Source: Thermoplasmatota archaeon
GTDB lineage: Archaea > Thermoplasmatota > E2 > DHVEG-1
DNA: 51,633 nt
Direction: 5' to 3'
Assembly (NCBI GenBank): GCA_030616985.1
Contig: JAUWWG010000001.1
Location: 1-51,633 of the forward strand
Position 1 is the stretch's first letter. Every line of letters begins with the position of its first letter. The translations under genes and the position numbers were made by a program. Under the pieces are notes generated by a model that searched no databases, was not told the origin of the DNA, and saw nothing but the letters and a program-made list of their open reading frames with translations. This document shows positions 15,906 to 48,676 of this stretch, piece by piece.

Positions 15906-16475
15906 ATGAAAGAAGACTATTATCCGTGGGGTGGTGAATTCAATACATGTTCGCCTGATGGACGTGTTGCAGTCGTAATTCTTAATATAGAATACACTCC
16001 CCCCAATACTGTAGCCATATATGGGCCGCTTAAGACCGAAAATATCGGCATAGAAAAAATCGTTGCCAATGTAATATCAAATCCCCATATAAGATATCTT
16101 ATTGTTTGTGGAGATGATATCAGAGGACACCGTTCAGGATCTTCACTCGTTGCCCTGCAGAAAAATGGAATCGATGAACAAAACAAAATTATCGATGCAC
16201 CTGGAGCAATACCATATATTGAAAATCTAACTATGGAAGCAATAGACAGATTTCGCAATCAAATTGAAATCGTCGATTTACTGGGCATTAAAGACAAGGG
16301 AAGCATCGACAAAGCGGTACATGACAATACTGTAAAACCAGTCCCGCCATATGGTGAACCATATATTGCCATACGTATTAAACCCAAAACAACGGTAAAC
16401 TTAGACGATAAAAGAGCGTTACATTCAAAAATTGTAATGAACTACATGGGAAAGGTTGAAAAAAGAGGTGAATAG
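15906..16475 (+). CDS. mtrA: MtrA-like corrinoid-binding protein (soluble; no C-terminal TM anchor)
   Basis: 189 aa. YPWGGEF, VAIYGPLKTEN and IRYLIVCGDDIRGHRSGSSLVALQKNGID match the MtrA fold region, including the Gly-His segment. The protein ends ...GKVEKRGE with no hydrophobic helix. Confidence 0.75.
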   Translation: MKEDYYPWGGEFNTCSPDGRVAVVILNIEYTPPNTVAIYGPLKTENIGIEKIVANVISNPHIRYLIVCGDDIRGHRSGSSLVALQKNGIDEQNKIIDAPGAIPYIENLTMEAIDRFRNQIEIVDLLGIKDKGSIDKAVHDNTVKPVPPYGEPYIAIRIKPKTTVNLDDKRALHSKIVMNYMGKVEKRGE

Positions 16476-17375: not shown

Positions 17376-18271
17376 TGAATAATAAGATCAAAACATGCGT
17401 AATTGGATCATACCCCGTGCTTACTGATGCTATGGAACTTATGAATGGATATTTTAATGGAGAGGAAGTCTCCTGGGACAAATATATCCAATACGCAGTT
17501 AGTGACATGGTCAACGCTGGACTTGACATTGTTTCAGACGGGCAAACAAGAGATCCATTCATTCAGATTTTTACAAGAAAACTAAAAGGATGTAGAATCA
17601 GAGCCAGAACAGAAATCGTAGATAAAGTAGAATACAATGCCCCTATAACACTTAAAGACCAGAAATACGCCAAAAGCTTGATTCCAGATGATAAAGAATT
17701 AACAGGCGTTCTTACTGGGCCATATACTCTAAGTAAATCGTGTATCGATTTGTATTATAACGATGAAAAAGATCTTGCCTTTGATTTTGCCCATGCCCTT
17801 AAACAAGAGGCAAAGGTATTGCAAAAACACGTCGATATGATTAGCATTGATGAACCATTTTTTTCTAATGAGATACCAGACTACGGGAAAGAACTAATTG
17901 AGATAATTACAAAGGACATTTCCTGCCCCACTAGGCTTCATGCATGCGGGAATGTATCTGATATAATATCAGAGTTATTGGAGATTCCCGTGGATATATT
18001 ATCTCATGAATTCAAAGCATCCCCGCAAATATTCGATGCGTTTAAAGAATATGCTTTTCCTCAAAAAATTTGTTTGGGTGCTGTTCGCTCAGATGACACA
18101 CGAGTTGAATCAGTTGAAGAAATAATGGAGCATACAAAAAAAGGAATGGACATCTTTGGAGAAAAGATTGTTCAATTGGCACCTGACTGTGGGCAAAGAT
18201 TGCTGCCCAGAGATGTTGCTTTTCAAAAATTGAAAAATCTTGTAAAAGTAGGTGAAAAAATCAATGGTTGA
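17375..18271 (+). CDS. Core (C-terminal-half-only) MetE-like methionine synthase / methylcobalamin:homocysteine methyltransferase family
   Basis: 298 aa. TAATG stop/start overlap with mtrH. Zn-ligand pattern RLHACGN (His-x-Cys), ISIDEPF (Glu) and LAPDCGQ (Cys), as in MetE/URO-D-like methyltransferases. Confidence 0.8.
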   Translation: MNNKIKTCVIGSYPVLTDAMELMNGYFNGEEVSWDKYIQYAVSDMVNAGLDIVSDGQTRDPFIQIFTRKLKGCRIRARTEIVDKVEYNAPITLKDQKYAKSLIPDDKELTGVLTGPYTLSKSCIDLYYNDEKDLAFDFAHALKQEAKVLQKHVDMISIDEPFFSNEIPDYGKELIEIITKDISCPTRLHACGNVSDIISELLEIPVDILSHEFKASPQIFDAFKEYAFPQKICLGAVRSDDTRVESVEEIMEHTKKGMDIFGEKIVQLAPDCGQRLLPRDVAFQKLKNLVKVGEKING

Positions 18272-33288: not shown

Positions 33289-33630
33289 TTCTTATATACC
33301 TCTAAGCTACTTACTAACGCCTGTAATCTATTACCATTATTTAAAAATCTCTATTCAAACGGTAGTCTCAACAAGCAAAATCTTGTGTCATATCACAAAT
33401 CCACAGCATATCTTCCCAAAAATTATCGAAAAAATATGGGTGCAATAATTAAAAACTCTTGAGAAAGGATTATAAATAATGATATAATTAACAATTGTTA
33501 AAAATAAATAAGACTATCGTAAAAACCAAAAAATAATATGGAACTGATTACTTGATCTAAAACAATAAGAAATCATACATAGCAGGATGAATACCTTTTT
33601 ATCCAGGATAGATATTTGAGGAGGAAATTC

Positions 33631-34941
33631 ATGAGAAAAAATATACAAAAATTAATAATCATTGCATTCCTACTCCTATTGTTACAATCTTTAATACAAC
33701 CTGTTTTAGCAGAAGAAAAAATTGTTTTAGATTTTTTTTATACCAGTAATTGTGCATCATGCGAAGAGAAACTAGTGATAATTGAAGATGGTTTTGAAAA
33801 AAATGAGACATATGACGATATACTCATCATAACCAAGAAAAACATAGCAGCAAATGAAGACTACCTTGATGAATGGAGAAACGTATACGATTACTACTCT
33901 TATCCATTTGTAGTTATAAAAAGTGGAACTAATGAGACAATCATTGGTGAGATGGACATAACCGTTGAATATGTCGGAAACGTCATCGCAACATATCTTA
34001 AGGGAGAGAAACCCAATGAGACTTCCGATGAGAACATAATAGATACCCCTTTTGGCAAGATTAATATATCTAGTCTTTCACTTCCAATCCTTACGATTAT
34101 TCTTGGCAGTCTAGATAGTTTTAATCCATGCGCATTTTTTATTCTGATTTTTCTGTTAAATCTTCTATTGTATGCTCGCTCTCGCAGGAGGATGCTCCTT
34201 ATCGGCGGTGTGTTTATCTTTTTCTCTGGACTTCTCTATGCCATATTCATGTTCATATTATTTGAAACTTTTTTACTTAATAGAGAGCATGTTGGAATAA
34301 TCACAATCATTGCAGGTAGTCTTGCACTCACCCTTGGAGTTATCAACATTAAGGATTTCTTCTTTTTCAAAAAGGGAGCTTCTCTAAGCATTCCTGATGA
34401 TAAAAAACCAGGAATATATAAACAGATGAGAAATCTTGTCAGAAACCCCAGGGTTTCAGCTGCAATTATTGGAACGATAGTATTAGCAGGAACTGTTAAT
34501 TTTTATGAGTTGTTGTGTACTCTTGGACTTCCACTTGTGTTTACCCAAAAACTAGCACTATATGATATGTCTGCAATTGAATATTATACCTACATATTTT
34601 TTTACAACGTCGTCTATGTTATTCCGCTCATAATTATTGTTTTAATTTTTGTGTTTACATTGGGAAAAAGAAAACTTACGGAATGGCACGGCCAAGTCAT
34701 GAAACTTGTCACAGGAATTATGCTATCCTCATTTGGCGTGATATTTCTGACTAATTATAAACTTTTAGAAAATGTTGTTACACCTATTTTGTTGCTTGTT
34801 TTCAGCCTCGTAACGACCGCAGTTATTTCCACCGTTTGGAAGAAATACGTTGTTAAAAAAAGAGAAATAACGCCACCTAAGTCAAAAGAAAAAGTTGAAA
34901 AATTAGAAAAAGAGATAGAATCTAAAGAAGAAACTAAATAA
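33631..34941 (+). CDS. Thioredoxin-like CxxC domain fused to a DsbD/CcdA-like thiol-disulfide transmembrane module
   Basis: The ORF track opens at TTG 33616. ATG 33631 follows GAGGAGG by 7 nt. Signal peptide; extracytoplasmic YTSNCASCEEK (CxxC); TM core with Cys-in-membrane motifs SFNPCAFFIL and YELLCTLGLP. Confidence 0.6.
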   Translation: MRKNIQKLIIIAFLLLLLQSLIQPVLAEEKIVLDFFYTSNCASCEEKLVIIEDGFEKNETYDDILIITKKNIAANEDYLDEWRNVYDYYSYPFVVIKSGTNETIIGEMDITVEYVGNVIATYLKGEKPNETSDENIIDTPFGKINISSLSLPILTIILGSLDSFNPCAFFILIFLLNLLLYARSRRRMLLIGGVFIFFSGLLYAIFMFILFETFLLNREHVGIITIIAGSLALTLGVINIKDFFFFKKGASLSIPDDKKPGIYKQMRNLVRNPRVSAAIIGTIVLAGTVNFYELLCTLGLPLVFTQKLALYDMSAIEYYTYIFFYNVVYVIPLIIIVLIFVFTLGKRKLTEWHGQVMKLVTGIMLSSFGVIFLTNYKLLENVVTPILLLVFSLVTTAVISTVWKKYVVKKREITPPKSKEKVEKLEKEIESKEETK

Positions 34942-34944
34942 TAT

Positions 34945-37900
34945 TTAGAATAAAAAGGATGGGAGTTTATCCTTTAGATTTTTTACTTTTGTTACTATTT
35001 TTCCCCTTAGTTGTGATTTTTTTGAAGTTGCCTTTATCTGTGCATTCTTTTTGTCTTGGTTCCATTTAATGAACAAAAATGAGACCAACAGAAGTATAAT
35101 TACAAGCAACGCTAAAGCAATAATCGCCGTATTGTCCGTTTGGGCAATAGAAGTAGAATCATGGCTTGCAATTTTTCCAGTTTTAATATCGTAGATATGG
35201 TCCCATTCGCCATCACCATTTTCATCTATAAGATATGTTCCATCGTTTTGTTGTTCAATATTAATTTCTCCACCAGTTGTACTGTTATAGAACATATCAT
35301 AGACTCCATCAGAATCAACGTCTTTGATGTATCCAATATCGCCAACAATGTGTACATCTATTAAGATGGCGTATTCCATGACTCCAGATTCTGTTTGACC
35401 ATCAAATGCTTTTACGGTAATTGTGTATTTTCCAGCAGCATTCCACTTATGTGTTTGTGTTGTTATCGTTTCGATTGGCAGGAAATCGGTTGTTGTCGTT
35501 TCGCCATCATCCCAGTTAAAAATATATTGTATCTCATCATTATCTTCATCAGTAGAAACTGCAACATAGCTGTATTCAGTATTCTTTATACCATTTTGTG
35601 GACCATCTACTTCAGGAGTGATAGGTGGAACGTTTGGCTTTTCCACCACAGAAACATGCGTAACATCCGTATTGTTCCCACCAGGTCCAGTTACTGTCAG
35701 GCATACAGTATATTCTCCAGCCGTCATATATACATATGTCGGAGAAATTCCAGATCCAGTATTTCCATCACCAAACTCCCAACTATAGGAAGTTATAGAA
35801 CCTGTACTTCCTGACCCGTCAAATGTTAATTCTACTCCAACATATACTCCATATGGCCCACTTCCATCAGCAGTCGGTTCTGATGGCGGAGTCTCTCCTC
35901 CATCCCCATTATCGCCACCTGATGGTTTTGATTCAACTGTAAAAGAATAAGACTTGTTGGTCCAATCAAATCCATCTGTTATGTTTACATACCAAATTAT
36001 ATTTGCATCATATGATAATAGAGTTATAAGATCACAACTAATTGTACCGTTTCCCATAGGACTAGAACTACTATTACTGTCACCAGTACTTGCTTCAATT
36101 GTCCAATTCATTAAATCTCCTTCTGAATCAGCAATATTCACACTTATCGATGACTGCTCACTATCAACGTCTGTCCCACTGTGTAAAGGATCCTCGTTTG
36201 ATTGTGAAGGTACTTGATTATTTGCGGTTGTATCATTTGCTTTAGCATACAATGAACTGTATGTGTTATCAGTCTCATTGTATGACCATGCCTGGTAGAA
36301 ATATTGAATTCCACTGTCTAATCCCGTATGTTGGTAACTGGCCTCCGTATCGTTATAAATTTCAGTACCGGCACCTCTTGACCAGTTTTCTGTAGCGTTC
36401 CACTCAATATATGTGCAATTGCTTCCATCATCTGCCCAAGTTAGATTCATCTGGAAACGGCCATCTGCACTTGCAGTGAAATTATCAGGAGTACCGAGTA
36501 TAACCTTTTCTCTTGTTTTAAAGGTAAAACATTTTCTTGTAGCAGTATAATTGTCTGTAGCATTGACCCAAACTACATACTCAGTATCATAATCTAAATC
36601 AGTTAGTGACAATTCTTTCGTCCCATTACTGTCACAATTTATACTATTTGATTGCCCATTACTACACTCCATAGTCCAGTTAAAATTGTCACCATCTGGA
36701 TCTTCAATATAAATACTCCAGACAAACGAAGGTTCTTGATCCAACGAACTATTTACAGTAGTTTGATTTTTAAAAATTGGCGGATAATTAACTGTGTTAT
36801 TGAATATACAGGTTATGAGGCACCCGTTTTTGATAACAGGAACGTTACGTAATGAAGCTATACCACCATTTGCCATGATTTGTTCCGAACAAACCAAGGC
36901 AACCGCACCCACAAACGAATAGCCATTCTGCATAGTTTCTGTAATATTAACATACGCTATTGTCTCACCAGGACTAATGACTACATTAAATACAATGCTT
37001 CCAGTACCATCTGTAAATCCAGAAGGCGACTCAACCCTCCCACCAGTTACCTCTGCAGTGAATTCCCAATCTTTTGCAGGCTCACCGTCGATGAACTTTT
37101 GAACCACTATACTTCTACTAAAAAGGAGAGCTGTCAAATTGAAAAGTACGTCGTCAAGATCAGATATATCGCAAGTAATAACATCCGTATTGACTGAAAT
37201 TACGTCTGGAGGAACTGTGGAAACATTGGATCCGGAAATTGCTTTTAAATTATCTATATTCAACTCACCACGCAAAATACCATGACCTTCAATACCAATT
37301 GATATGATTCTTATTCCATTGTTTTTTGCAGCATTTGCTGCTGCAATGGCAGCACTTATAGCCTTGCCTCGTGGCAGCGTAGGGCTACCATCCGTGATAA
37401 TAACGATTAGATCACCATCCCCAAGCATTGAATTGGCTTTGGAAATTGCTACATCCCAATTTGTGTATTCTATATCCAAGATATGTCCGATGCTGTCAAT
37501 TGCATTGTTTAGGTCTAAAGAATCATTGGTTGGTGTGAGTGAACTCACCACATGCGAATCGAAATCAATAATACCAATGTTGACTTGAGTCGAAGAGAGA
37601 AGAGGATCAACAAAACTTTCAAAAGCTGCTTTTTTAATATCTTGGAGATCACTTGAGTTTAAACTATCTGAACTATCTATCATCAAAACCATGTCTACAT
37701 CACAAGAAGTAGGCAATACGGGATTAGCCTCAAATCCAACGTAGAAATGAGCCGTTCTTATAGTCCACCAAATTATCCAATGATATTGTATCTGAATATC
37801 CCATTCACCGACCTGAGCATCAAGGGGTAATGTCCAATTAGTAGAAACCTCATTTCCATCTACCTCGTCAGATATATGTACAACCATATTATTCAGGTCC

Positions 37901-38169
37901 CTAATTCTTAATCTCATGCGACCACTTCTACCTATATTTCCATACCCATAGATTGTCTCACCTTGAGCAAAAACTGTTTTGGAAATAGAATGATTATTTT
38001 CAAATGTCCCAACAGTACTATCCATAAAGGTACCAGCTTTTGCAGGTGTCGCAAAGAGTGATATTGCTGACACTGAAGCCAACACCATTATCATTACAAA
38101 AAAACCAGCAGTAAATTTCTTAACTTTATTGTTTCTACTTTTCAGTCTGTTTTGTTTTACCATTTTCAT
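34945..38169 (-). CDS. Large anchored surface protein: VWA, Ig/FN3-like and PKD domains, C-terminal anchor cassette (1,074 aa)
   Basis: GGGAGGTGA SD; signal peptide. The VWA MIDAS motif is in DVDMVLMIDSSDSLNSSD. It has FN3-like repeats and PKD-type blocks (LTFDGSGSTGSITSYSWEFGDGNTGSG; NWDDGETT...HKWNAAGKYTITVKAFDG). The C-terminal end has DxDxDG loops, a TM helix and a Lys-rich tail. Confidence 0.85.
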   Translation of the reverse strand: MKMVKQNRLKSRNNKVKKFTAGFFVMIMVLASVSAISLFATPAKAGTFMDSTVGTFENNHSISKTVFAQGETIYGYGNIGRSGRMRLRIRDLNNMVVHISDEVDGNEVSTNWTLPLDAQVGEWDIQIQYHWIIWWTIRTAHFYVGFEANPVLPTSCDVDMVLMIDSSDSLNSSDLQDIKKAAFESFVDPLLSSTQVNIGIIDFDSHVVSSLTPTNDSLDLNNAIDSIGHILDIEYTNWDVAISKANSMLGDGDLIVIITDGSPTLPRGKAISAAIAAANAAKNNGIRIISIGIEGHGILRGELNIDNLKAISGSNVSTVPPDVISVNTDVITCDISDLDDVLFNLTALLFSRSIVVQKFIDGEPAKDWEFTAEVTGGRVESPSGFTDGTGSIVFNVVISPGETIAYVNITETMQNGYSFVGAVALVCSEQIMANGGIASLRNVPVIKNGCLITCIFNNTVNYPPIFKNQTTVNSSLDQEPSFVWSIYIEDPDGDNFNWTMECSNGQSNSINCDSNGTKELSLTDLDYDTEYVVWVNATDNYTATRKCFTFKTREKVILGTPDNFTASADGRFQMNLTWADDGSNCTYIEWNATENWSRGAGTEIYNDTEASYQHTGLDSGIQYFYQAWSYNETDNTYSSLYAKANDTTANNQVPSQSNEDPLHSGTDVDSEQSSISVNIADSEGDLMNWTIEASTGDSNSSSSPMGNGTISCDLITLLSYDANIIWYVNITDGFDWTNKSYSFTVESKPSGGDNGDGGETPPSEPTADGSGPYGVYVGVELTFDGSGSTGSITSYSWEFGDGNTGSGISPTYVYMTAGEYTVCLTVTGPGGNNTDVTHVSVVEKPNVPPITPEVDGPQNGIKNTEYSYVAVSTDEDNDEIQYIFNWDDGETTTTDFLPIETITTQTHKWNAAGKYTITVKAFDGQTESGVMEYAILIDVHIVGDIGYIKDVDSDGVYDMFYNSTTGGEINIEQQNDGTYLIDENGDGEWDHIYDIKTGKIASHDSTSIAQTDNTAIIALALLVIILLLVSFLFIKWNQDKKNAQIKATSKKSQLRGKIVTKVKNLKDKLPSFLF

Positions 38170-38422
38170 CAGTCCTCACCTCCCTTTTTGTAAGTTTGCT
38201 TATTAAGGATTTGTTGTACAATTGTTACCAGACATCCTTGACAGTTCTTTCTAAAAAACATTTCAAATGATTTTACTAAAGAGATATACGTCTTACACTA
38301 TGACTCCCCATTTGCATTTCTGCCTCAATCTCAAATTTAGACCCACATTTACAAATTACTGAAAATATAATAGAAAAAAAGGATGTCAAAGTTTAGTATT
38401 TTTACCTGAGATTTCTTGCTCT

Positions 38423-39793
38423 TTACCTTTGCTTTTTCCTTACTATTAGATAAATTGTGAACAATAAGACTATCGATACAATCGTACCTACAATTAACGC
38501 ATACCATACTGCATTATTTGCCTCTTCTTTGTCCGCTTGATCATCCTGACTATACTCAACGAGTGTTTCTGTCTCAAGATCGTAGACATAATTCCAGTTA
38601 TTGCCATTCCCATCATCAAAAACATCAAGTATCTTTCTAAAAGCATCAATAGTGTGCTGAGTAGTATCAATTCTTATACGATAGTCATCAATGTTATATC
38701 TTATTGCCCCATCAATCTTATCATCTGAACTGTCATACTGTAGAGCAATCAGATTATGAACGCCAAGTATTATCCCAACTTTGTATTTATTTTGATGCTC
38801 AGTATCATTTATTAGTCTAGCAACCTCATATGCATAGGTCAGTCCCTCTGTATATACGCCGTCCGAGGATGAATGAGGGGTTCCATACTCAGGATGCATA
38901 GGATCATAAAATCGACCTAAAGTAGAACAGTCGTTCGTATCCTGAATTTCCAGCAATTTATCATTTAAAACAATAATGGCATCAACATATTTTTTTTCAC
39001 CAGTTATCTTGTAAAGTTTGTTCAATGATTGAGTATGCCATGGAACATATGCTGGATAGTAATTATCTTCCAAATGAACAACATATCTGTCAATATAGAA
39101 ATCCTGTGATTTTACGGCAGCCGCAAGATAAATACTATCGTTTGTTTTGATATACATTTCAACCAAACTAAGTATTGCTTCTCCTGAGTAAAATGTCAGC
39201 AAATAATCCGTATCATATTCGTAATCGGGGGCTATATACCAGGGTTCAAAGGAACCGTCGGTATTCTGCAATGAAAAAATAGAATTCGCAAGTTTTGTAG
39301 CCTCTTCTTGATAATCATCAAAGAATGGACTATATATCAGTGTTCTTAGTGCCATGGCAATAGCCCCTAATTTCGATTTATTATCGTAGAAAATATAACC
39401 CGTTTCGTTATCCTCTTCATACCAATACTCAAAGATAAAATCCAAATTTTTCTGATGTAAAGTTTCCAAAGAAGAATTTGTTTGACATAACTCGGCCAAC
39501 AGTCGAGAGGCCATAAGCTGACGTATCATGTTATTTTTATCGGGATATTCCCCAGTTGATGGTTCGTAGATGTAATTAAAACATCCTTTTTCCCTGAGAT
39601 TAGATGTTAACCATTTTTCAGCCGGATTTAAGGAATTGTTTATCTTTTCATAAGATAAATCAACAATTTCAATACTAGAATAGCCCTCTTCTATGCACCC
39701 TGGAAGGAAAACTGATGAAAATATAAGAGAACCCATTACAGCAAGAATTGTCAGTTTACGGCAAATATGTATCGGACAAAATTTTTTGAACAT
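38423..39793 (-). CDS. Lipobox-bearing, C-terminally anchored (alpha/alpha)-toroid-like protein (456 aa)
   Basis: Signal with LPGC lipobox-like motif. LQNTDGSFEPW resembles the Q-x-x-DG-[GS]-[FW] repeat of prenyltransferase/terpene-cyclase-like alpha/alpha barrels. The C-terminus carries NWNYVYDLETETLVEYS, a TM helix and RKKQR. Confidence 0.6.
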   Translation of the reverse strand: MFKKFCPIHICRKLTILAVMGSLIFSSVFLPGCIEEGYSSIEIVDLSYEKINNSLNPAEKWLTSNLREKGCFNYIYEPSTGEYPDKNNMIRQLMASRLLAELCQTNSSLETLHQKNLDFIFEYWYEEDNETGYIFYDNKSKLGAIAMALRTLIYSPFFDDYQEEATKLANSIFSLQNTDGSFEPWYIAPDYEYDTDYLLTFYSGEAILSLVEMYIKTNDSIYLAAAVKSQDFYIDRYVVHLEDNYYPAYVPWHTQSLNKLYKITGEKKYVDAIIVLNDKLLEIQDTNDCSTLGRFYDPMHPEYGTPHSSSDGVYTEGLTYAYEVARLINDTEHQNKYKVGIILGVHNLIALQYDSSDDKIDGAIRYNIDDYRIRIDTTQHTIDAFRKILDVFDDGNGNNWNYVYDLETETLVEYSQDDQADKEEANNAVWYALIVGTIVSIVLLFTIYLIVRKKQR

Positions 39794-39960
39794 ACTTCTA
39801 AAAATCTTTTAACCTCCAAATATCTCTATCCTTCATTATTGTTATTTAACCTTGTTTTATAATTGTTTCTCAGGTCGGAGTTAATCCAGCAAAGCAATAT
39901 CTTAGAAAGACGGGTAGTAATTAGGAAAATAAGAAATAAAAAAAAGAAAAAAAAGAGGTT

Positions 39961-41391
39961 TTATTTTTTAGATTTTTTACTGGTAGTTTTCTTTTTTGGC
40001 TGTGATTTTTTCTCAGCTGCCTTCTTTTGTGCTTTCTTTTTATCATTGCTTCGTTTTACCAGATAGCCTAATATGATTAGGAAAAGTATTACGATTATTG
40101 CTAAAACAATAAGTGCGGTGTTATCTGGCTCTGGCGTTGGTTCACTGTACTCGGTAAGTGTGTCTGTTTCAATATCATAAATCCAATCCCATGAGTCGTC
40201 TCCATCATCATCGAGGAGATATGTTCCATCATCTTGTTTTTCAACGTCGGTTTCTTGGGCTGATGTATCATTATGGAAAGAATCATAGGTTCCATCCGCA
40301 TCGTCGTCAATGAGGTAGCCAATGTCATCCACAAGATGCACATCTATTAACACTGTGATTTGATTGGTGGAAGATACGGTCTCATTGTCAGAAGCTCTAA
40401 CTGTGAGAGTGTATTTACCAGCAGACATCCAGCTATGGATCTGCGTTGATGCTGTGCCGTTTGGTAGAAACTCAGTTTCTGTAACTTCACCATCACCCCA
40501 ATTAATTATATATTGAATGGTATCATTGTCTGGGTCAGTTGACTGGAAGATATAGGTATACTCGGTGTCTTTTGTTCCCTCAGATGTTCCATCTATTGTC
40601 GGTTCTGTGGGTGGGAGATTTGCTTTTGAAATTATAACATCAATGGTATCTGTATCCGTAGCACCTACGTTATCAGTAACTCTCAATGTCACTGAATAAG
40701 TGCCCTCTGCATCAAAAGTATGTGTAGCAGTGCTAGAAGTTGAGTTATAATCATAGATTCCATCGTTGTCCCAATCCCATTCATACAAGTCAATTGTGCC
40801 ATCACTATCAGTACTAAGAGAACCGTCAAAGTAGATTGACTCATCCACAAATCCAGATGTTTGACTTTCAGATGCGTCTGCTATTGGTGGTGCGTTTCCA
40901 CCACCAATGTATCCATCACCATCGCCGTCTCCGTCTCCATCGCCGTCTCCATCGCTGTCACCATCTCCATCGCCGTCTCCGTCTCCATCGCCGTCTCCAC
41001 TAGTTGTATCAACATGTAAATCTATCATGTCCACACTTTCTTCCACGGGAACATTATATGTCGGATTATCTGTTATTACACCTGAAATGGAAACTCCAAA
41101 TGTGCCTGTTTCACCTTCATGTCCTACAAAGGAAATAGAATACTTGCCTCCATTCTTTGTAGTATCCTCATGATCATTACTTGAAAATGATAACGTAACA
41201 GTTACTCCATCTTTGAGTTCGTCGTCAATGTACAACTCCCCAGCAACCGTATGAAACTCTTCTGCTTTTATTGTTGGAACAATTGCTACTGAGACTGATG
41301 CAAGCATTATACTCATTATTACTATCGATAATATTTTTCTTTTATTCATAAATCTCTTCCCCATTTTTTTGTATTGGTAAGTTGTTTTCAT
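39961..41391 (-). CDS. Anchored PKD-domain surface protein with a (GD)n linker (476 aa)
   Basis: Signal peptide. 29-residue GD/SD repeat. PKD blocks (YFDGSLSTDSDGTIDLYEWDWDNDG; NWGDGEVT...HSWMSAGKYTLTVRASD) are paralogous to the C-terminal third of the 1,074-aa protein. It has the same anchor cassette. Confidence 0.8.
   Translation of the reverse strand: MKTTYQYKKMGKRFMNKRKILSIVIMSIMLASVSVAIVPTIKAEEFHTVAGELYIDDELKDGVTVTLSFSSNDHEDTTKNGGKYSISFVGHEGETGTFGVSISGVITDNPTYNVPVEESVDMIDLHVDTTSGDGDGDGDGDGDGDSDGDGDGDGDGDGDGYIGGGNAPPIADASESQTSGFVDESIYFDGSLSTDSDGTIDLYEWDWDNDGIYDYNSTSSTATHTFDAEGTYSVTLRVTDNVGATDTDTIDVIISKANLPPTEPTIDGTSEGTKDTEYTYIFQSTDPDNDTIQYIINWGDGEVTETEFLPNGTASTQIHSWMSAGKYTLTVRASDNETVSSTNQITVLIDVHLVDDIGYLIDDDADGTYDSFHNDTSAQETDVEKQDDGTYLLDDDGDDSWDWIYDIETDTLTEYSEPTPEPDNTALIVLAIIVILFLIILGYLVKRSNDKKKAQKKAAEKKSQPKKKTTSKKSKK
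40912..40998 (-). repeat. In-frame short tandem repeat encoding (Gly-Asp)n
   Basis: 87 nt of GGNGAY-type units (plus strand ...ccatcgccgtctccgtctccatcgccgtctcc...) encode GDGDGDGDGDGDSDGDGDGDGDGDGDG. Confidence 0.9.
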
Positions 41392-41428: not shown

Positions 41429-44400
41429 TTATCGTTTGGTATCTACAGTAATTTGTATTTCTTGTACAGCTAGTATCGCACCGTCACCTATAACCTTTAA
41501 GCATATGAAGTACGTACCATCTGGTGTTTCCTCAGGAACCGTTATGCTCACGTTGAATTCTAATGTTTCTCCTCCGCCGACGTCATAGTGTGCTTCGGGC
41601 TCCCATTCGAACCAGTCTTCATAACCCTCACTTACTTCAAGGGTTAACTCACTGACTGTTGCGGTAATATCTTCAATAAGTTCAACGATTGCATCTCCAA
41701 GGTCACCTGAACTGGCAAGTTCTTCAAATAAACCACCGGTTTCACTAGTTGCATACAACCAAGGACAATCATCATATCCACCTGAATCAATAACTACCAC
41801 TGAAATATCAGCGGCCTTTAAATCAGCTATAACATCAGCCCACGGTAAATCATCACTCGTTCCTGCAATAGCATCTCGTCCTGGGTCTACACCAGTATTG
41901 CCCGAACATCCAAATGTACTAAAGTCACAGTCATGAGGAATATTGTCCTCGAATATTACTACGATTTTTCTCGCTCCGAATCTCCAACCAACGAATTGGG
42001 ATTCATAAAGAGCCCTTGCATATGACTCAGGTCCATCAGCTCCGCCACCTAAAACGAGAGCGTTTATGGCTGTGCTAACTGCACTTGCGTCAGTTGTTAT
42101 ATCTTGATCTAGACTCCATGCATAATCGCCATATGAGGGATAACCATAGTCGCTTGAATATCCACAGTAATTGTAATATGCGGGATAATCCATGAAAGAT
42201 CCTACACCGAAGTAAGAGTTACTAATATTAGAACGTATATCGGTCATGATATCTATGGCGCTTGTCTTTGCGCTGCTTATCACACCACCCATACTTCCGG
42301 TTAGATCAAATAGGAACATGACATCAAGCTTACCTATTGGAATCTCATCAGTGATAATTGTCTTGTTATCCCAGACGGATTCTCCTGGAATCATGGTTGC
42401 TTCGAAAGATTCAGGGCTCACTGTTGCTCCACCACCTGCTGTACATTCAAGACATTGAATGGAAATGGATGCATCATCTGTTGCAGTGCATCCTGCCATA
42501 TCTGTTGCCTTAGCTGTAATGTTGTAGGTATGATCTAATGTCCATATGCCTTCTGAATCATATTCCCAGTATTCATCATAGTCGTGAGCACATAGGAGCC
42601 ATGTTTCTTCTGGAATCCAAGCACTACCATTCCAATATGCATCCGCAGTAATATCGTGTATTAGTACATGTACTTCATCTACTCCTGTTTCATAGTCGTA
42701 TGCATAGAAATTCATGTTACCTGGTCCTTCACATCTAACATCGCCATCCATCGGATCAAGTATTTCAACTTCAGGTCCACTAGTATCAGTGTAAAATCTT
42801 GCTTCGGTGTCGTTCATTTTCACCCAGTAGTCCTTACCACAGTACATATCTTCTAGATCAACGAAACCCATTTCCACTAGTTCCTTAATCCACGAATGCC
42901 ACGCGTCTTCTACCACATCATAATAGTATATCTTAGAGTACATACCATCTATAGAGGCTAGTACACTTTCTACAGAGTTATTACAGCTAATTCCACCAAA
43001 TGGAATTGTTAATTTGTTCCATCCGTTTTGCATCCATTGATCCCATACAGTACTACTGCAAATCTCAAATGTCACGGGTATTGCAAATTCAGAGTTCATA
43101 TCTCCATCCACTGCTAAAGCTTGCAGTGTTATTTCAGCTCCATTTTGATATTTAAAGATATCAATATCTGCATACCAATAACCATCAGTTGTATTGTATT
43201 CTGGATCATACCAGAGTGTTGGTGCATCACGTCTACCACCAGGTATCCATAGTTTAACTGTTAGTTCATCCCAAGATGATTCATGATCAAACGCAGTAAT
43301 ATTTACTTTTAACGTTCTTTCGCAATGAGTGGATCCAAACATCGGATCGTTAATCATTATAGTAGGTCCAGTATCACCAGGTGAACACACCCAGAATGTC
43401 TCATTATCTATTTCTCCACGGTTACCAAGGCAATCATATGCTCTTGCTTCTAGATAATGTACACACCCTCTTGTCAAAGTGATACATTCTGTATAGTCAG
43501 TCCATTCAGTCCAACTTCCAAGATACCAGATTCTATATTCAATGGTTACTCCTTCACACGGACAACATCCTTCGTCACCTATCTCAGTGAAACAAATCTC
43601 GGTATCAGGGAATATCATCCATTGATCATGACCTGACGAATCATTTTCAAGTTTTACTTTTGGATCGCCAACTATCTTTTCAGGTTTTGGCGGTGGTGTA
43701 TCATCTACATAGAATGTCTCATGATCCCAGAATGCATCATCCAATCCGTTTCCAAGACAGTCGTAAGCTCTAACAACTAATTCATGAACGCATTCTTCTG
43801 TGAAATTGAATGGCTCTTTGTATTCGATCCAGTCAGTCCAAACCCAAACTTCATAATCGTAAAATCCAATCATGTATTCAATAGTTACATTTGTACATGG
43901 ACAGCAACCCATTTCCAGTGCATCGAGTGTGATAAGTGTTTCAGTTGTTACACAGTAATCGTCTTCACCCATCTCGCCGCAGTCTGTACAGTTGGGATCA
44001 CCAACGGTTTTGATGATCTCAGGTGGTGTTTCATCAACGTAGAATGTTTCATTATCCCAGTACATTTCATCCATACCGTTACCAAGACAGTCATATGCTC
44101 TAACATATAATTGGTGCTCGCATTCCTCGGTGAAATTGAATGGCTCAATATACTCAATCCAGCTACCATCTCCAATCTTGTATTCAATAGTTACACCCTC
44201 ACTCGGACAGCAACCTTGCTCTACCGCTTCAAGTGTAATCAATGTATCAGTTGTAACACAGTAATCATCATCACCCATTTCACCGCATCCAGTGCAATTC
44301 AGATCACCAACAGTCTTGATGATCTCAGGTGGTGTATCATCAACGAAGAATGTTTCATTATCTATTTCTCCAAGGTTGCCGAGGCAATCATAGGCCCTTG

Positions 44401-47400
44401 CTTCAAGATAATGTACACATTCTCCACTTAGGGTAATGTTGCCAGTATAATTCATCCAACTTGTCCATGTTCCCAAGTACCAAATTCTATATTCAATTGT
44501 AAAATCTCCGCTTGGGCAACATCCTAGATCAACAGCATCAAGTGTAATGTTAGTATCTGTTGTTACACAGTATCGATCTGGAACAAGGACTTCAATAAAT
44601 GTTTTCTGAGCGTCCTCGCCTGCATCACAAAGAATGGCACACCATTCACCTATCGATGGCATGAAGCCTTCCCCAAAGTTCGTTGCATTTTCAACCATCG
44701 ATTTTCCAGCATCGTTTGATGGATCATTGCCCCCATCTACGAAATACCAAATTGCTTCTTGGATATCTGTCTTGGTTGCATCTGGATGTTTATGATTTAT
44801 GATATAGTTTACCATATCCCAGTCAGAATCTGGCCAAGGCATTAATGGATCATAAGAACACCATAGATCAACTGAATAATCAACTCCATTACTGATGAGC
44901 TGATTTTGATCTACACACCAACCAAGATAGTCGCCATTGGCAATATCATATCCAAATGGAACATTGCTGAGAGTGACATCAAAATAACTGTTAGCTCCCC
45001 AATGTTGAACAACCATAGTCACTGAGCTTGAAGGCAATTTCAAAGATTTACAGTTAAGAGTACAGTTTGGATCTCCAACAGTCTTTTCTATTATTGGAGC
45101 AGTGATATCAACATAGAATGTCTCATTATCCTCGAACTCGTTACCCAAAATATCTGTTGCACGAATAAGCAGGTAATGCATGCATTCTTCGGTGAGATAG
45201 AGAGGTTCATCTTCGAGTTCTTCAAGCAGCATCCATCCCGTCCAGTCTCCATTGTACCAGATATTGTATTCAACTGTATCAAGACCAACACCACCCATAC
45301 ATCCGCGATCTTCAGCGTAGAATGTAATTGGTGTGTCTGGTGTAATACAATATTCTTCTCCAGTTACAATAGTGCAATTTGGATCGCCGACGGTTTTAAA
45401 AATAGTTGGTGGGGTTAAATCAACATAGACAAGTTGTTTTCGACCAACGACTTTATTTTCTAGTTTATCAATTGCTTGATGATAGATGAAGTGCATACAT
45501 TCTTCATTAAGTTGAATGTCAATAATCATTTTTCCCTCAGTATCATCAAGGTCTCCGCTAACACTCACATTAGCATCTTCATATCCTGTGTCATTGTTAT
45601 CATAAATGATTCCTTCTGCAATGATTTGTGTTTTATTATTTTCAATTCTCCAAATAATACGGTCTACACCCGCTATACCACCAGTACATCCAGTATCATT
45701 GGCAAAAATTCTTTTTATACTTTGATTATTGATGTAGCGTGCTCCACCAGGTAAAAGATAAGAATCTATGTAGGTGAAATCATCGTTTGAAGGCGCATCA
45801 AAATCAACGAGAAAATCATATGGTGGTAAATAATTCCAGTTTCCCATTGTATCTACACAATGCGCATGGATTTGATGAAAGCAACTTTCCTCAATGTAGA
45901 ACTGGATGGATATTCTACCATCATTGAGGTCTGCATCTGTGGTAAAGGGGTTTCCGGTTTGTTGGTTATCATAGACAAAAACCCATGCTGGGTCATCCCA
46001 GCTTCCAAATACATCCGATTTGAATAATTTATATTTAATAAAGTCAGTTCCTGTTTCCGCATCTGATGAGTTAATCCATACCGGTGTTTGTGACCCAATT
46101 AAATCAAGCCATTCCAACCCTGTATTGTATACATCTTCCATAAGTGGTGTTCCAAGTTCAATGGTTTGCGTTGGTGGGTAGTCTTCACCGTTATCTTCAC
46201 AGACTGTTGTTTCTTCTACCTTTGTAGTTGGTGGGGTCTCATCGCTTTCAATAGTTGCATAGTTGGAAATTATTGTTTCAGATGGAGTTAAGGGATCAAC
46301 CTGGACAAGCAACCATAGACAATCTCCTTCCTCAGTAGAAATAGTTCCAATATCCCAGCTAACATTGTGGTTAACACTATCATAGCTCCCACCAGGTGAA
46401 GCATCAATAAATATCAATTCTGATGGAAGAGTATCCTCAATCATTACATTATTAACCGTGAACTCGTTCATATTATCAAAACAGATACTATAATTAATAT
46501 CATCGCCAGGACTTACACACTCACCTTCTCTTATTCCATCATCTTTATCAAGATTCAAAGGATTATATGAAACATCCGAAATAGGTATGCATAAACCTGC
46601 AGGATCACCAATATCACCTGTAATATCAAGCTGAGTAAATGGAGTAGTACTCGTATCCCAAGCGATTAACTGATCCCCATTATATCCATGAGTAGAATAT
46701 ACATAGCCTGTTATCTGATCAACAGCAAGACCCATAGCACCATTAGTCATCGTATGTGTTGTCTCAGTAGCACTGTTAAGATCATATTTACATAATACAT
46801 TATTACCTGCAAATCCAGCTCCAGTATAGAGAAAACCACGTACGTAATCAACTGCAATACCAATGGGATAATTACTCAAAGTAATCGCTCCCTGAAGACT
46901 CCACGTTGCCGTATCATAATATGTAACATTTAATTGATAATAATTAGAAACATAAAGAATATCTTTGGCTTCATCTAAAGCAATACCATACATATCACTA
47001 CCTGGAAGGTTAATAGGAAAACCTGCCTCCAATGTTAGCGTCTTAGCAACTGGATCCCAAACATAAGAATAAAGTTTATCTGTACCTCTGTCTACTATAT
47101 AGAGCAGTTCCTTCTCATGGTCATAAACAACACCTGCAAGGTTACTTGCTCCAGGTGCTACTACTGATCCTTCTCCAACCATAGTAGTACCATTAATAAG
47201 CGAAAGAGTACCACTACTTTCCTGTGTCAAAAAAAGATAACCAGAGTTCGAATCAATAGCCAGGCCAACAGAACCCCAACCAAAGGCAGTGTTATATGTA
47301 GCTTGATAAGTAAATGTCCCATCAACATTAATATTATATGCCTGAATGGGCGCAGCATTATCATTGGTGTTGGAACACACATAAAGTGACTTTGCACTAA

Positions 47401-47473
47401 CATTTCCACAAGCAACTGCTAATAGAGCGACAAACACCAGCGTCAAAAATATTACAAACATTTTCTTTTTCAT
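41429..47473 (-). CDS. Giant secreted surface protein (2,014 aa): beta-propeller, DUF11-like, six Cys-rich Ig-like modules (one with a thioester-domain-like insert), Ig-like region, VWA, C-terminal beta-sandwich; no membrane anchor
   Basis: The signal peptide is MKKKMFVIFLTLVFVALLAVACG. It has YVTN-type propeller repeats (GIAVD..LYV.N pattern) and a DUF11-like block NYSICFDN...VMIEDTLPSELIFIDASPGG. Modules are of the type ETFYVD-TPP-I-KTVGDPNC...GCCP...IEY...H.L..RAYDCLGN. The VWA motif is LDVMFLFDLTGSMGG. It ends ...ITVDTKR with no hydrophobic tail. Confidence 0.9.
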   Translation of the reverse strand: MKKKMFVIFLTLVFVALLAVACGNVSAKSLYVCSNTNDNAAPIQAYNINVDGTFTYQATYNTAFGWGSVGLAIDSNSGYLFLTQESSGTLSLINGTTMVGEGSVVAPGASNLAGVVYDHEKELLYIVDRGTDKLYSYVWDPVAKTLTLEAGFPINLPGSDMYGIALDEAKDILYVSNYYQLNVTYYDTATWSLQGAITLSNYPIGIAVDYVRGFLYTGAGFAGNNVLCKYDLNSATETTHTMTNGAMGLAVDQITGYVYSTHGYNGDQLIAWDTSTTPFTQLDITGDIGDPAGLCIPISDVSYNPLNLDKDDGIREGECVSPGDDINYSICFDNMNEFTVNNVMIEDTLPSELIFIDASPGGSYDSVNHNVSWDIGTISTEEGDCLWLLVQVDPLTPSETIISNYATIESDETPPTTKVEETTVCEDNGEDYPPTQTIELGTPLMEDVYNTGLEWLDLIGSQTPVWINSSDAETGTDFIKYKLFKSDVFGSWDDPAWVFVYDNQQTGNPFTTDADLNDGRISIQFYIEESCFHQIHAHCVDTMGNWNYLPPYDFLVDFDAPSNDDFTYIDSYLLPGGARYINNQSIKRIFANDTGCTGGIAGVDRIIWRIENNKTQIIAEGIIYDNNDTGYEDANVSVSGDLDDTEGKMIIDIQLNEECMHFIYHQAIDKLENKVVGRKQLVYVDLTPPTIFKTVGDPNCTIVTGEEYCITPDTPITFYAEDRGCMGGVGLDTVEYNIWYNGDWTGWMLLEELEDEPLYLTEECMHYLLIRATDILGNEFEDNETFYVDITAPIIEKTVGDPNCTLNCKSLKLPSSSVTMVVQHWGANSYFDVTLSNVPFGYDIANGDYLGWCVDQNQLISNGVDYSVDLWCSYDPLMPWPDSDWDMVNYIINHKHPDATKTDIQEAIWYFVDGGNDPSNDAGKSMVENATNFGEGFMPSIGEWCAILCDAGEDAQKTFIEVLVPDRYCVTTDTNITLDAVDLGCCPSGDFTIEYRIWYLGTWTSWMNYTGNITLSGECVHYLEARAYDCLGNLGEIDNETFFVDDTPPEIIKTVGDLNCTGCGEMGDDDYCVTTDTLITLEAVEQGCCPSEGVTIEYKIGDGSWIEYIEPFNFTEECEHQLYVRAYDCLGNGMDEMYWDNETFYVDETPPEIIKTVGDPNCTDCGEMGEDDYCVTTETLITLDALEMGCCPCTNVTIEYMIGFYDYEVWVWTDWIEYKEPFNFTEECVHELVVRAYDCLGNGLDDAFWDHETFYVDDTPPPKPEKIVGDPKVKLENDSSGHDQWMIFPDTEICFTEIGDEGCCPCEGVTIEYRIWYLGSWTEWTDYTECITLTRGCVHYLEARAYDCLGNRGEIDNETFWVCSPGDTGPTIMINDPMFGSTHCERTLKVNITAFDHESSWDELTVKLWIPGGRRDAPTLWYDPEYNTTDGYWYADIDIFKYQNGAEITLQALAVDGDMNSEFAIPVTFEICSSTVWDQWMQNGWNKLTIPFGGISCNNSVESVLASIDGMYSKIYYYDVVEDAWHSWIKELVEMGFVDLEDMYCGKDYWVKMNDTEARFYTDTSGPEVEILDPMDGDVRCEGPGNMNFYAYDYETGVDEVHVLIHDITADAYWNGSAWIPEETWLLCAHDYDEYWEYDSEGIWTLDHTYNITAKATDMAGCTATDDASISIQCLECTAGGGATVSPESFEATMIPGESVWDNKTIITDEIPIGKLDVMFLFDLTGSMGGVISSAKTSAIDIMTDIRSNISNSYFGVGSFMDYPAYYNYCGYSSDYGYPSYGDYAWSLDQDITTDASAVSTAINALVLGGGADGPESYARALYESQFVGWRFGARKIVVIFEDNIPHDCDFSTFGCSGNTGVDPGRDAIAGTSDDLPWADVIADLKAADISVVVIDSGGYDDCPWLYATSETGGLFEELASSGDLGDAIVELIEDITATVSELTLEVSEGYEDWFEWEPEAHYDVGGGETLEFNVSITVPEETPDGTYFICLKVIGDGAILAVQEIQITVDTKR
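43403..45436 (-). repeat. Six tandem ~100-110-aa Cys-rich Ig-like modules inside the giant gene
   Basis: Module boundaries by hand count: residues 680-783, 784-1039 (with insert), 1040-1141, 1142-1251, 1252-1357. Each is delimited by [EQ]-[TL]-[FV]-[YFW]-V-D-x-T-[PA]-P. Confidence 0.8.
44579..45058 (-). other. Thioester-domain (TQXA/TED)-like insert in module 2 of the giant protein
   Basis: Cys853 sits in GDYLGWCVDQ (codon 44915-44917). Gln905 sits in MVNYIINHKHPDATKTDIQEAIWYFVDG (codon 44759-44761). This gives aromatic-C-aliphatic-D and Q-x-A-I-W contexts like Gram-positive adhesin TEDs. Confidence 0.4.
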
Positions 47474-48499: not shown

Positions 48500-48676
48500 A
48501 AAATATTTCCTTACGCTCCTATTATGAAGGCAGGTTTCAGATTGTATACACCATCCAACACATATTCTAAATGTTTGACATGCAACTTCATCCCACTTGT
48601 ATTCGGCTTTTCCCAAACGTTTTAAACAACTATTTATACAAAACCAATTATAACAAAGGACAGAGGTTTGGTTTTA

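Follow-up and report, generated by a model that had tools for sequence, protein, structure and literature searches.

What do three neighbouring surface-protein genes of a Thermoplasmatota archaeon have in common at their C-termini: a docking domain, a sorting signal or an ordinary membrane anchor? Uncultured Thermoplasmatota are abundant in sediments and cold seeps and, to our knowledge, their cell envelopes are essentially unknown. The window, by which we mean the whole 51.6-kb stretch of DNA analysed, contains three minus-strand ORFs for proteins of 1,074, 456 and 476 aa (Table 1), and the coordinates that a first-pass annotation gave for their C-termini translate exactly to the peptides it quoted. 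That annotation described a C-terminal cassette on three otherwise different proteins, with EF-hand- or dockerin-type loops and the architecture of a sorting signal. We find that the cassette is indeed a true module with an anchoring role. For its nature we favour, with a probability of roughly 0.6, a stalk domain that is stabilised by Ca2+ and lies next to the membrane on type I surface proteins, being neither a dockerin nor a sorting signal.

Table 1. Features of the locus (window coordinates; TM, transmembrane)
Feature	Coordinates	Strand	Details
1,074-aa protein gene	34945..38169	minus	ORF; type I surface protein; Pfam VWA and PKD; signal peptide, VWA, Ig-like/fn3-like regions, PKD, PKD, module, linker, TM, tail
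Cytoplasmic tail, 1,074-aa	34948..35067	minus	40 aa (12 K/R)
Linker, D-N-T cap and TM helix, 1,074-aa	35068..35157	minus	linker STSIAQT; DNTAIIALALLVIILLLVSFLFI
Full module, 1,074-aa	35158..35358	minus	residues 938-1004
Loop 2, 1,074-aa	35200..35226	minus	DENGDGEWD
Loop 1, 1,074-aa	35296..35322	minus	DVDSDGVYD
PKD-PKD pair, 1,074-aa	35344..35877	minus	homologous to 40330..40887 of the 476-aa gene; within larger common C-terminal block
456-aa protein gene	38423..39793	minus	ORF; lipobox-like signal (LPGC), (alpha/alpha)6-barrel ectodomain, remnant hairpin, linker, TM, RKKQR
Linker, N-N-A cap, TM helix and tail, 456-aa	38426..38548	minus	'WYALxxGTIxS' helix; RKKQR tail
Module remnant, 456-aa	38549..38617	minus	degenerate loop 2 and last beta-hairpin, DDGNGNNWNYVYDLETETLVEYS; HMM positions 46-67
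476-aa protein gene	39961..41391	minus	ORF; type I surface protein; signal peptide, conserved N-domain, (DG)n linker, PKD, PKD, module, linker, TM, Lys-rich tail
Lys-rich cytoplasmic tail, 476-aa	39964..40056	minus	31 aa (16 K/R, 2 D/E)
D-N-T cap and TM helix, 476-aa	40057..40125	minus	DNTALIVLAIIVILFLIILGYLV
Acidic/Pro linker, 476-aa	40126..40143	minus	EPTPEP
Full two-repeat module, 476-aa	40144..40344	minus	residues 350-416; HMM positions 1-67
Calcium-type loop 2, 476-aa	40186..40212	minus	DDDGDDSWD; residues 394-402
Calcium-type loop 1, 476-aa	40282..40308	minus	DDDADGTYD; residues 362-370; between model strands 9-12 and 22-25
2,014-aa secreted protein gene	41429..47473	minus	lacks a C-terminal anchor; lies 37 nt upstream of the 476-aa gene

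The three C-termini agree to different extents

By hydropathy heuristics, signal peptides are found in all three proteins, and these combine with a single C-terminal TM helix and a positive-inside tail charge into a type I (N-out/C-in) arrangement; the signal-like segment of the 476-aa protein was read from its sequence. In this protein, which matches Pfam PKD_4 at 2.1e-21, module and linker have a strong excess of acidic residues (26 D/E vs 1 K/R), and the tail a strong excess of basic ones (16 K/R of 31 residues).

The full cassette is present in the 1,074- and 476-aa proteins, whose modules score 90.4 and 94.2 bits against the family HMM. These two are not otherwise different, as had been supposed: they are alike from ~190 residues upstream of the cassette, over a block spanning PKD-PKD-module-cap, with 46% identity over 263 aa (BLASTP, E 2e-56, far above chance). 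The 1,074-aa protein is also 89% identical to an orthologue in locus L003. On the 456-aa protein the cassette claim holds in part, since of the module this protein keeps only the final hairpin, which covers HMM positions 46-67, its distal third (11.9 bits; E 0.007 within the window), followed by the anchor. The homology of this tail is secure because its last 63 residues match the C-terminus of a full-module protein, P0027, at 54% identity (E 9e-22). The [DN]-N-[TA]-A motif likewise fits strictly in two proteins, the 456-aa protein having N-N-A-V, and the loops, previously put ~29 residues apart, lie 32 residues apart, start to start. Among the large ORFs of the window, the pattern D-x-[DN]-x-[DN]-G-x-x-[DEN] is confined to the 1,074- and 476-aa PKD proteins; in the latter it also falls on a (DG)n low-complexity run and on one PKD site.

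The AlphaFold model of the 456-aa protein (pLDDT 90.4) places the remnant hairpin at strands E401-405/E410-414, and Foldseek matches its ectodomain to GH76/GH88/GH105/AGE-type barrels (E 1.7e-7). Across its orthologues, down to ~50% identity, the final hairpin and anchor alone are kept; bacterial and other archaeal homologues have no module remnant, and their core stops at '..AFRKILDVF'.

The module defines a widespread domain family

An initial word-indexed homology search with the three-sequence cassette returned 10 fragments only, and an exhaustive profile search was required. This yielded 894 protein clusters at E ≤ 1e-3 and 486 at E ≤ 1e-10, the module always lying near the C-terminus. 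The module is carried by at least 79 genome loci, and every one of these belongs to a sediment MAG of Thermoplasmatota or 'Euryarchaeota'. The cassette thus reaches well beyond the local paralogues. Mere local paralogy without wider meaning might be suspected from three neighbouring genes, two with 263 aa in common, but hundreds of clusters and at least 79 loci across many MAGs speak against it, as do the well-diverged DNA of the paralogues and an alignment of the three 3' ends in which no recent gene conversion was seen. The family distribution beyond the window rules this explanation out, and we leave it practically no chance.

The module sits ~20 residues ahead of a C-terminal hydrophobic helix (family median between second loop motif and TM, 22-24 residues). 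One such helix follows it in all but 7 of 231 unique C-termini, and most of these 7 are fragments or were picked up by a spurious pattern match. A hydrophobic segment is present at the N-terminus of 81 of 104 full-length-like members. A PKD-PKD-module consensus is common to 83 family members, whose ectodomains carry PKD (76), fn3 (10), NosD/beta-helix (5), cohesin (4) and VWA (2) domains. Pfam, NCBIfam and the PDB hold no model for the module, and searches of the cassette alone against Pfam and NCBIfam at E ≤ 10 gave TM-driven noise only. The sole metatranscriptome linked to samples holding the sequence contained none of its words. The module is a real, widespread and unnamed small domain just outside the membrane, before an ordinary membrane-spanning anchor, and constitutes a new domain family of an already known kind.

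Two calcium-type loops in a predicted all-beta fold

Within its 67 residues the module has two Dx[DN]xDGxxD loops. Across 237 unique modules, D/N occupies positions 1/3/5 of the loops in 93-100%, D/N/E occupies positions 1/3/5/9 of both loops in 93-100%, and G6 is conserved in 78-80% (loop 2 of the 476-aa protein has D at this position); position 12 is Y/H/F, with no acidic residue there. This strong conservation of the Dx[DN]xDG motif upholds the description of the loops as calcium-type. AlphaFold predicts the 476-aa module as all-beta with seven strands (pLDDT 95.3 in all five models), both loops joining two strands (strand-loop-strand) and no helix, and hhalign detects an internal duplication with a probability of 97.9% (E 3.9e-13).

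The predicted fold bears directly on a possible kinship with dockerins or EF-hands, under which the module would be of the helix-loop(-helix) calcium type and bind a cohesin. Its two Dx[DN]xDG loops follow each other at ~30 residues, like those of type I dockerins (PF00404), with which it has in common duplicated calcium-type loops of similar spacing and an occurrence in cell-surface protein systems; cohesins are present in this lineage, and the loops open with the Dx[DN]xDG start of the 12-residue EF-hand loop. However, neither a helix-loop-helix nor an acidic bidentate ligand at position 12 is found, nor the duplicated ~22-residue loop-helix segments of PF00404. Whereas a type I dockerin is a loop-helix (F-hand) domain with an acidic position-12 ligand on a secreted partner, the module is all-beta at pLDDT 95 with strands flanking each loop, has no such ligand, and lies on the membrane-anchored partner, where a dockerin is not expected. 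Pfam Dockerin_1 and EF-hand give no match on the cassette even at E ≤ 10, although Dockerin_1 does detect real dockerins in adjoining genes (L027, L015 and L002). The EF-hand/dockerin identity of the first-pass annotation is therefore largely refuted by the all-beta fold, position 12 and the absent profile match, and we hold it to be extremely unlikely.

A closer likeness is offered by the integrin-type calcium blade, where FG-GAP-like beta-propeller blades carry a Dx[DN]xDG loop with a further ligand two residues beyond it (Rigden et al. 2011, PMC3123361). The module has this spacing in a strand-loop-strand context; it is likewise extracellular, with DxDxDGxxD repeats born by duplication. Unlike the 6-8-bladed propeller, it comprises two repeats in 67 residues, so that it is not a blade of a multi-bladed structure, and it is fixed directly ahead of a membrane anchor. 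It has no Pfam FG-GAP/VCBS match, Foldseek against the PDB gave nothing significant (best E 0.64, with Kelch blades below TM 0.41), and PDB sequence-profile searches with 10- and 60-sequence alignments returned sub-threshold calmodulin-loop and designed-propeller matches only. By analogy in motif spacing and secondary-structure context, and in these alone, the module most likely binds two Ca2+ in the manner of an integrin calcium blade.

The anchor behind the module is interchangeable

Behind the module, the 231 C-termini fall into several anchor classes: DNT-like (57, ~25%; tails of 3-95 aa), PGF-like (46, ~20%; tails of 4-13 aa; called by sequence pattern, with one scanned by profile), YKKGYF (15), FKTGYLYIE (7) and other plain TM helices (99; tails of 4-127 aa, some with conserved cytoplasmic coiled-coil-like segments). 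The PGF-type tail scanned, from L014, reaches 27.9 bits against NCBIfam Heimdall-CTERM (cutoff 24 bits). Several of these classes can occur within one MAG; CSMAG_2770, for instance, has a DYT cap (L006), YKKGYF (L020), PGF (L029) and a long tail (L064). Module and anchor are separable, because other members have a PGF-CTERM-like signal at the same position, and the anchor is interchangeable. The sequence of the D-N-T/W-Y cap and TM is, in turn, conserved beyond the need of a passive anchor (anchor alignment A8). Together with the retention of hairpin and anchor in the 456-aa family, this hints that they do more than tether the protein, for instance by making contacts between helices or with a partner. 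A search with the anchor alone returned two fragments, both with a hairpin remnant. The D-N-T motif was also considered as an N-glycosylation site and rejected, N-T-x not being an N-x-S/T sequon.

PGF-CTERM proteins are substrates of archaeosortase A, and a haloarchaeal 'PGF-pre-PGF' domain is known (NCBIfam/TIGRFAM descriptions). The module resembles the latter in position, being a conserved 'pre-anchor' domain in PGF-ending members, and does not belong to that family because it has no NCBIfam match at all. The three window proteins differ from PGF-CTERM proteins in having no PGF motif and, in two cases, long tails, and their C-termini reach no PGF-CTERM-type cutoff.

Could D-N-T-A, TM and basic tail nonetheless form a new C-terminal sorting signal, cleaved by an archaeosortase-like enzyme with re-anchoring of the protein? 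The tripartite look of motif, TM and basic cluster would fit, as would conservation of the cap but not the linker, a short-tailed subclass 'DNTxWYAL...RKK' (tails of 4-10 aa) that resembles known signals, and the PGF-CTERM-like signals at the same position in other members. Against it, the cap occurs in only 57/231 members, with tails varying from 3 to 95 aa, and on 0/21 module-less C-terminally anchored ORFs in ~650 kb, a limited sample biased to module neighbourhoods. Outside the module set, the only DNT-capped ORFs in this sample are those of the 456-aa protein and its L003 orthologue, both with a remnant hairpin; the cap is tied to module or remnant and therefore passed on by descent with the cassette rather than marking unrelated proteins. 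One signal on many unrelated proteins of a genome, the generic Haft-type mark of a sorting domain, was thus not seen in this limited and biased sample. Window C-termini match no NCBIfam sorting-domain model, the sole approach being that of the 456-aa protein to Loki-CTERM (13.6 bits, under the 19.9 cutoff), and searching the literature for Heimdall-CTERM/Loki-CTERM brought up no papers. The ORFs ≥ 150 aa of the 51.6-kb window were also searched for an archaeosortase, exosortase or rhomboid, and none turned up. While the 456-aa tail has 5 aa, the two PKD proteins do not have short basic tails, and their 31 and 40 residues are at odds with a cleaved signal; we infer no C-terminal cleavage of the window proteins. 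We consider a sorting signal very unlikely.

Neighbouring genes and a possible docking role at the cell surface

The 2,014-aa protein encoded next to the 476-aa gene contains an integrin-beta-like VWA domain (Pfam), and its homologues lie directly upstream of a module gene in L001, L004, L005 and L078, forming a conserved gene pair that suggests a link between this protein and the cassette. Possibly, the module or PKD-PKD-module serves as a docking platform that keeps partner proteins or a layer of the envelope on the cell, the small module proteins then being dedicated membrane tethers. Candidate partners are the upstream anchor-less giant protein, or an S-layer or glycolipid component.

This idea draws on the conserved same-strand gene order, in the window and the four loci above, in which a small module-TM protein comes after a large secreted protein that has no anchor, on a similar gene arrangement in at least 10 loci, on the integrin-beta-like domain, and on the membrane-adjoining position kept for every anchor type. 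In L027, L032, L015 and L002, moreover, the upstream proteins end in dockerin-like repeats (Dockerin_1 31.7 bits in L027) and the downstream module-TM proteins start with 1-3 cohesin-like domains; Pfam Cohesin is found in 4/83 members (best E 1.8e-17). Archaeal cohesin-dockerin systems have been described in ANME (PMC9012536). L015 (3 cohesins), L002, L027 and L032 resemble cellulosome-type anchoring scaffoldins in having cell-fixed cohesin proteins beside dockerin genes, but anchoring is via PKD-module-TM instead of SLH or a sortase, and the window proteins are without cohesins. Where docking is evident, however, it is done by cohesin-dockerin pairs rather than by the module, and no cohesin or dockerin is detectable in the window proteins; a jackhmmer search of the window, seeded with cohesins and dockerins of the related loci, had no matches. 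Nor do the upstream giant proteins keep a conserved C-terminus from one locus to the next, and the pairing frequency is biased, the loci having been chosen for their module. Docking by the module is accordingly doubtful, though worth considering. A bolder proposal, which we advance only tentatively and think improbable, is that module and capped 'WYAL..GxxxS' helix form a Ca2+-dependent docking/oligomerisation pedestal that defines a Thermoplasmatota-specific surface display and fixes the tethers at a defined place in the envelope. If so, the tethers would hold anchor-less giant proteins and cohesin-dockerin assemblies on uncultured sediment archaea, and the module would be a new envelope-binding domain, SLH-like in function, and not a mere spacer.

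A proposed membrane-proximal stalk on archaeal surface proteins

In the stalk-domain reading that we prefer, the cassette consists of two separable things, an extracellular all-beta domain and an ordinary type I membrane anchor. The domain arose when a unit of ~30 residues, made up of a strand, the D-x-[DN]-x-D-G-x-[YW]-D loop and two further strands, was duplicated internally, and two bound Ca2+ would make it a rigid, compact and very acidic stalk; we infer both the Ca2+ binding and the stabilising or spacer role. The anchor comprises a short acidic/Thr/Pro linker and one TM helix, its N-terminus capped by D/N-N/Y-T, often with W-Y after the cap, at the membrane interface, while the Lys/Arg-rich cytoplasmic tail would set the N-out/C-in topology. 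PKD pair and module would together form a membrane-proximal pedestal for the many different ectodomains of sediment Thermoplasmatota, among them VWA, beta-helix and fn3 domains and cohesin scaffoldins, with a truncated form bearing the (alpha/alpha)6 enzyme-like domain.

The claim of a new sorting signal, attractive but without support, is removed, and the Dx[DN]xDG calcium motif gains a further context, archaeal and non-propeller. The module also ties to membrane-anchored cohesin scaffoldins and dockerin operons in Thermoplasmatota. It marks a large set of Thermoplasmatota surface proteins that are now annotated only as 'PKD repeat' or 'hypothetical' because the module is missing from domain libraries; once defined, it provides a handle for cataloguing the surface proteome of sediment Thermoplasmatota.

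Three surface proteins share a C-terminal block

The first-pass annotation had proposed that three window proteins share a C-terminal cassette, and translation of its coordinates reproduces the quoted peptides exactly. The homology holds for all three C-termini, whereas the full module (a 67-residue two-loop domain ahead of the C-terminal transmembrane (TM) helix) is confined to the two PKD proteins, with profile scores of 94.2 (476 aa) and 90.4 bits (1,074 aa); the 456-aa protein reaches only 11.9 bits, over positions 46-67. Its C-terminus is nevertheless homologous to the cassette (module, linker, TM and tail), because its last 63 residues share 54% identity (E 9e-22) with the C-terminus of P0027, a representative family protein with a complete module. 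The pattern 'W-x-Y-x-Y-D..L..Y + linker + xWYAL TM' persists in orthologues of the 456-aa protein as far down as ~50% identity. Between the two PKD proteins, homology spans 263 residues at 46% identity (E 2e-56), and their common block, PKD-PKD-module-cap, is longer than the cassette originally outlined; the cap is a D-N-T-type motif at the TM helix start. At the 3' ends of the three genes the aligned DNA is well diverged, which excludes recent gene conversion. Signal-peptide-like N-termini are found in all three proteins, with a lipobox-like LPGC in the 456-aa protein.

The 456-aa ectodomain is confidently predicted as an (alpha/alpha)6 barrel (pLDDT 90.4) resembling GH76, GH88, GH105 and AGE-type enzymes (E 1.7e-7, TM 0.5-0.73), and in bacterial and other archaeal homologues the same core ends at '..AFRKILDVF'. 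The family of this core is unnamed and highly conserved; proteins from Altiarchaeota, CPR bacteria and elsewhere share 55-60% identity with it. Homologues often carry a fused AMMECR1 domain, and only the Thermoplasmatota versions have the C-terminal anchor. The N-terminal domain of the 476-aa protein recurs, at 31-42% identity, across numerous further proteins with the module, as well as in extra downstream genes of the module loci L001, L004 and L005.

Features of the window and of cohesin-dockerin loci
Feature	Coordinates	Strand	Remarks
Beta-helix/NosD-like protein	9630..10649	+	small
RadA	14856..15806		adjoins next feature
MtrA-like, MtrH-like, MetE-like trio	15906..18271	+	MetE-like: cobalamin-independent synthase domain
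441-aa multi-pass membrane protein	33616..34941	+	N-terminal CxxC (CASCEEK) domain, 'NPC' TM motif
1,074-aa PKD protein	34945..38169	-	
456-aa protein	38423..39793	-	(alpha/alpha)6 core
476-aa PKD protein	39961..41391	-	small PKD-module-TM protein
Spurious 'PSPSPS' ORF	40907..41173	+	product of (Asp-Gly)n linker
(Asp-Gly)n low-complexity linker	40912..41001	-	476-aa protein, ~30 residues, between N-domain and first PKD
N-terminal domain of 476-aa protein	40996..41271	-	residues 41-132, no Pfam assignment
2,014-aa giant protein	41429..47473	-	secreted, anchor-less
774-aa protein	48668..50992	+	end-to-end Pfam DUF3160 match, 699 bits
Operon-like dockerin-like + cohesin-(PKD)-module-TM cluster	L027:1-5288		
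Same	L032:969-5393		
Same	L015:3-5330		
Same	L002:3-5312		

The module is a predicted all-beta domain with calcium-type loops

AlphaFold2 models the module as a seven-stranded all-beta domain (pLDDT 95.3; 94.3-95.3 across five models) in which each acidic loop sits between two strands, and comparison of the two halves by hhalign (probability 97.9%, E 3.9e-13) identifies them as an internal duplication. Across 237 unique modules, loop positions 1, 3, 5 and 9 are D/N/E in 93-100%, position 6 is G in 78-80%, and position 12 is aromatic or His. The loops share the D-x-[DN]-x-D-G-x-x-D spacing of integrin-type 'calcium blades', in which a later ligand lies two residues past the motif (Rigden et al., PMC3123361), whereas their arrangement differs from that of EF-hands and dockerins (PMC3123361). 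The earlier comparison with EF-hand/dockerin-type loops is contradicted by the flanking strands and by position 12, and with an all-beta model a relationship to either family is scarcely credible. Foldseek gave no significant match of the module in the PDB; the best non-significant matches are single Kelch or designed propeller blades.

We favor, with a probability of about 0.6, a reading in which type I surface proteins carry the module as a stalk domain close to the membrane, stabilised by Ca2+. In the window, an ordinary TM anchor whose tail obeys the positive-inside rule would come next. Both elements of the cassette, the Dx[DN]xDG strand-loop-strand site and the C-terminal anchor, are already known.

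The module family is widespread and undescribed

The finding is real, and none of the libraries searched describes the family: the module is covered by no Pfam, NCBIfam or PDB-sequence model. An exhaustive profile search yielded 894 clusters (50% identity) at E<=1e-3 and 486 at E<=1e-10, matching near the C-terminus in every case, and a scan of one genome per species gave at least 79 loci, so that the module is not merely a local duplication among the window paralogues. All 79 loci lie in MAGs labelled Thermoplasmatota, Thermoplasmata, Thermoplasmatales, 'Euryarchaeota', 'Methanobacteriota archaeon' or 'uncultured archaeon'; the initial homology search added one fragment labelled Heimdallarchaeota. 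Locus L003 is syntenic with the window, whose sequence is present in marine-sediment and cold-seep metagenomes. PKD domains occur in 76 of 83 full-length members, alongside fn3 (10), NosD/beta-helix (5), cohesin (4) and VWA (2), and 81 of 104 full-length-like proteins have an N-terminal hydrophobic segment.

Anchors vary behind the same module

We surveyed 231 unique C-termini from representative proteins, loci and the window. All but 7 (mostly fragments or spurious pattern matches) contain a single hydrophobic helix, a median of 22-24 residues after the second loop motif. Since the anchor varies behind the same module, even inside one MAG (CSMAG_2770, with several classes at L006, L020, L029 and L064), module and anchor are separable. 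Members with long tails are genuine bitopic membrane proteins, and in some of these tails a coiled-coil-like cytoplasmic segment is conserved.

Pattern-based anchor classes among 231 C-termini
Anchor	n	Tail (aa)
PGF-CTERM-like	46	4-13
'IPW...Y[FL]YKK[GE]YF'	15	5-8
'...FK[TI]GY[LI]YIE...'	7	10-40
D-N-T / D-Y-T / N-N-A cap	57	3-95
Other plain TM helices	99	4-127

The cap, TM and basic tail had been read as a sorting signal distinct from PGF-CTERM. That distinction is borne out, as the window C-termini match no sorting-domain model, a result that equally counts against a novel signal at the cassette end. The cap is confined to about a quarter of the family, two of the three window proteins have tails of 31 and 40 residues, and the cap occurs on 0 of 21 module-less C-terminally anchored ORFs across the window and ~650 kb of related DNA, where the only two seemingly module-less matches proved to be the 456-aa protein and an orthologue, both with a module remnant. 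We therefore consider such a signal very unlikely. No archaeosortase, exosortase or rhomboid was found among window ORFs >=150 aa. The simplest view of the cap is that it came with the cassette by descent and serves as a helix N-cap and interface motif. What remains odd is the high conservation of the 'WYALxxGTIx[SGA]' helix, whose small-xxx-small pattern could, judging from sequence, mediate helix-helix contacts.

Other endings were also noted. The single PGF-like tail tested scored 27.9 bits, above the NCBIfam Heimdall-CTERM cutoff of 24. In the recurrent ending 'IPW/SPW - TM - Y[FL]YKK[GED]YF' (L020, L040, L044, L068, L072; P0005, P0006, P0019, P0037, P0066, P0152, P0154), the tail is always 5 residues long and reaches exactly to the C-terminus; this ending resembles a sorting signal, so far undescribed, more closely than the D-N-T cap does. 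'..LFK[TI]GY[LI]YIE..' is found in L034, L062, L070, L071 and L075, and a third tail, '..LGYEYPAHEKGKQK', in L017, L035, P0051 and P0123. One YKKGYF-type and one FKTGYLYIE-type tail matched no NCBIfam sorting-domain model above cutoff.

Neighboring genes and cohesin-dockerin loci

The 441-aa protein has homologues (55-95% identity) in the vicinity of module genes in L003, L001, L074, L021 and L013; its CxxC domain and 'NPC' motif give it a CcdA/DsbD-like look, and it has no match in Pfam or NCBIfam. Homologues of the NosD-like protein adjoin module genes in L013, L006, L032, L012, L010 and L015. Elsewhere in the window, the MtrA/MtrH/MetE-like trio suggests a methyl-transfer module.

A gap of 37 nt separates the 476-aa gene from the upstream gene for the 2,014-aa protein, in which DUF11, OmpL47-type beta-barrel repeats (106.7 bits) and a VWA of integrin-beta-like type are present. 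Homologous same-strand pairs recur in L001, L004, L005 and L078, and a similar large-then-small arrangement in at least 10 loci. The giant protein and the small PKD-module-TM protein may represent cargo and tether.

The suggested co-occurrence with cohesin-like domains applies to the four cohesin-bearing members and not to the window, where jackhmmer detected neither cohesin nor dockerin. At L027, three consecutive genes share the same C-terminal dockerin-like double repeat (jackhmmer matched all three; the one scanned, 2188-4413, gave Pfam Dockerin_1 at 31.7 bits), and after them comes a gene for a 278-aa cohesin-module-TM protein. The arrangement is analogous in L032, L015 (three cohesins) and L002. 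A rival reading is that the module itself serves partners or an envelope layer as a platform for docking or oligomerisation. We regard this as unlikely, as docking at these loci is the work of cohesin and dockerin rather than of the module. Cohesin-dockerin systems have been described before in archaea, e.g. in ANME (PMC9012536), and these four clusters look like membrane-anchored scaffoldins in Thermoplasmatota; the module family therefore includes membrane-anchored scaffoldin-like tethers.
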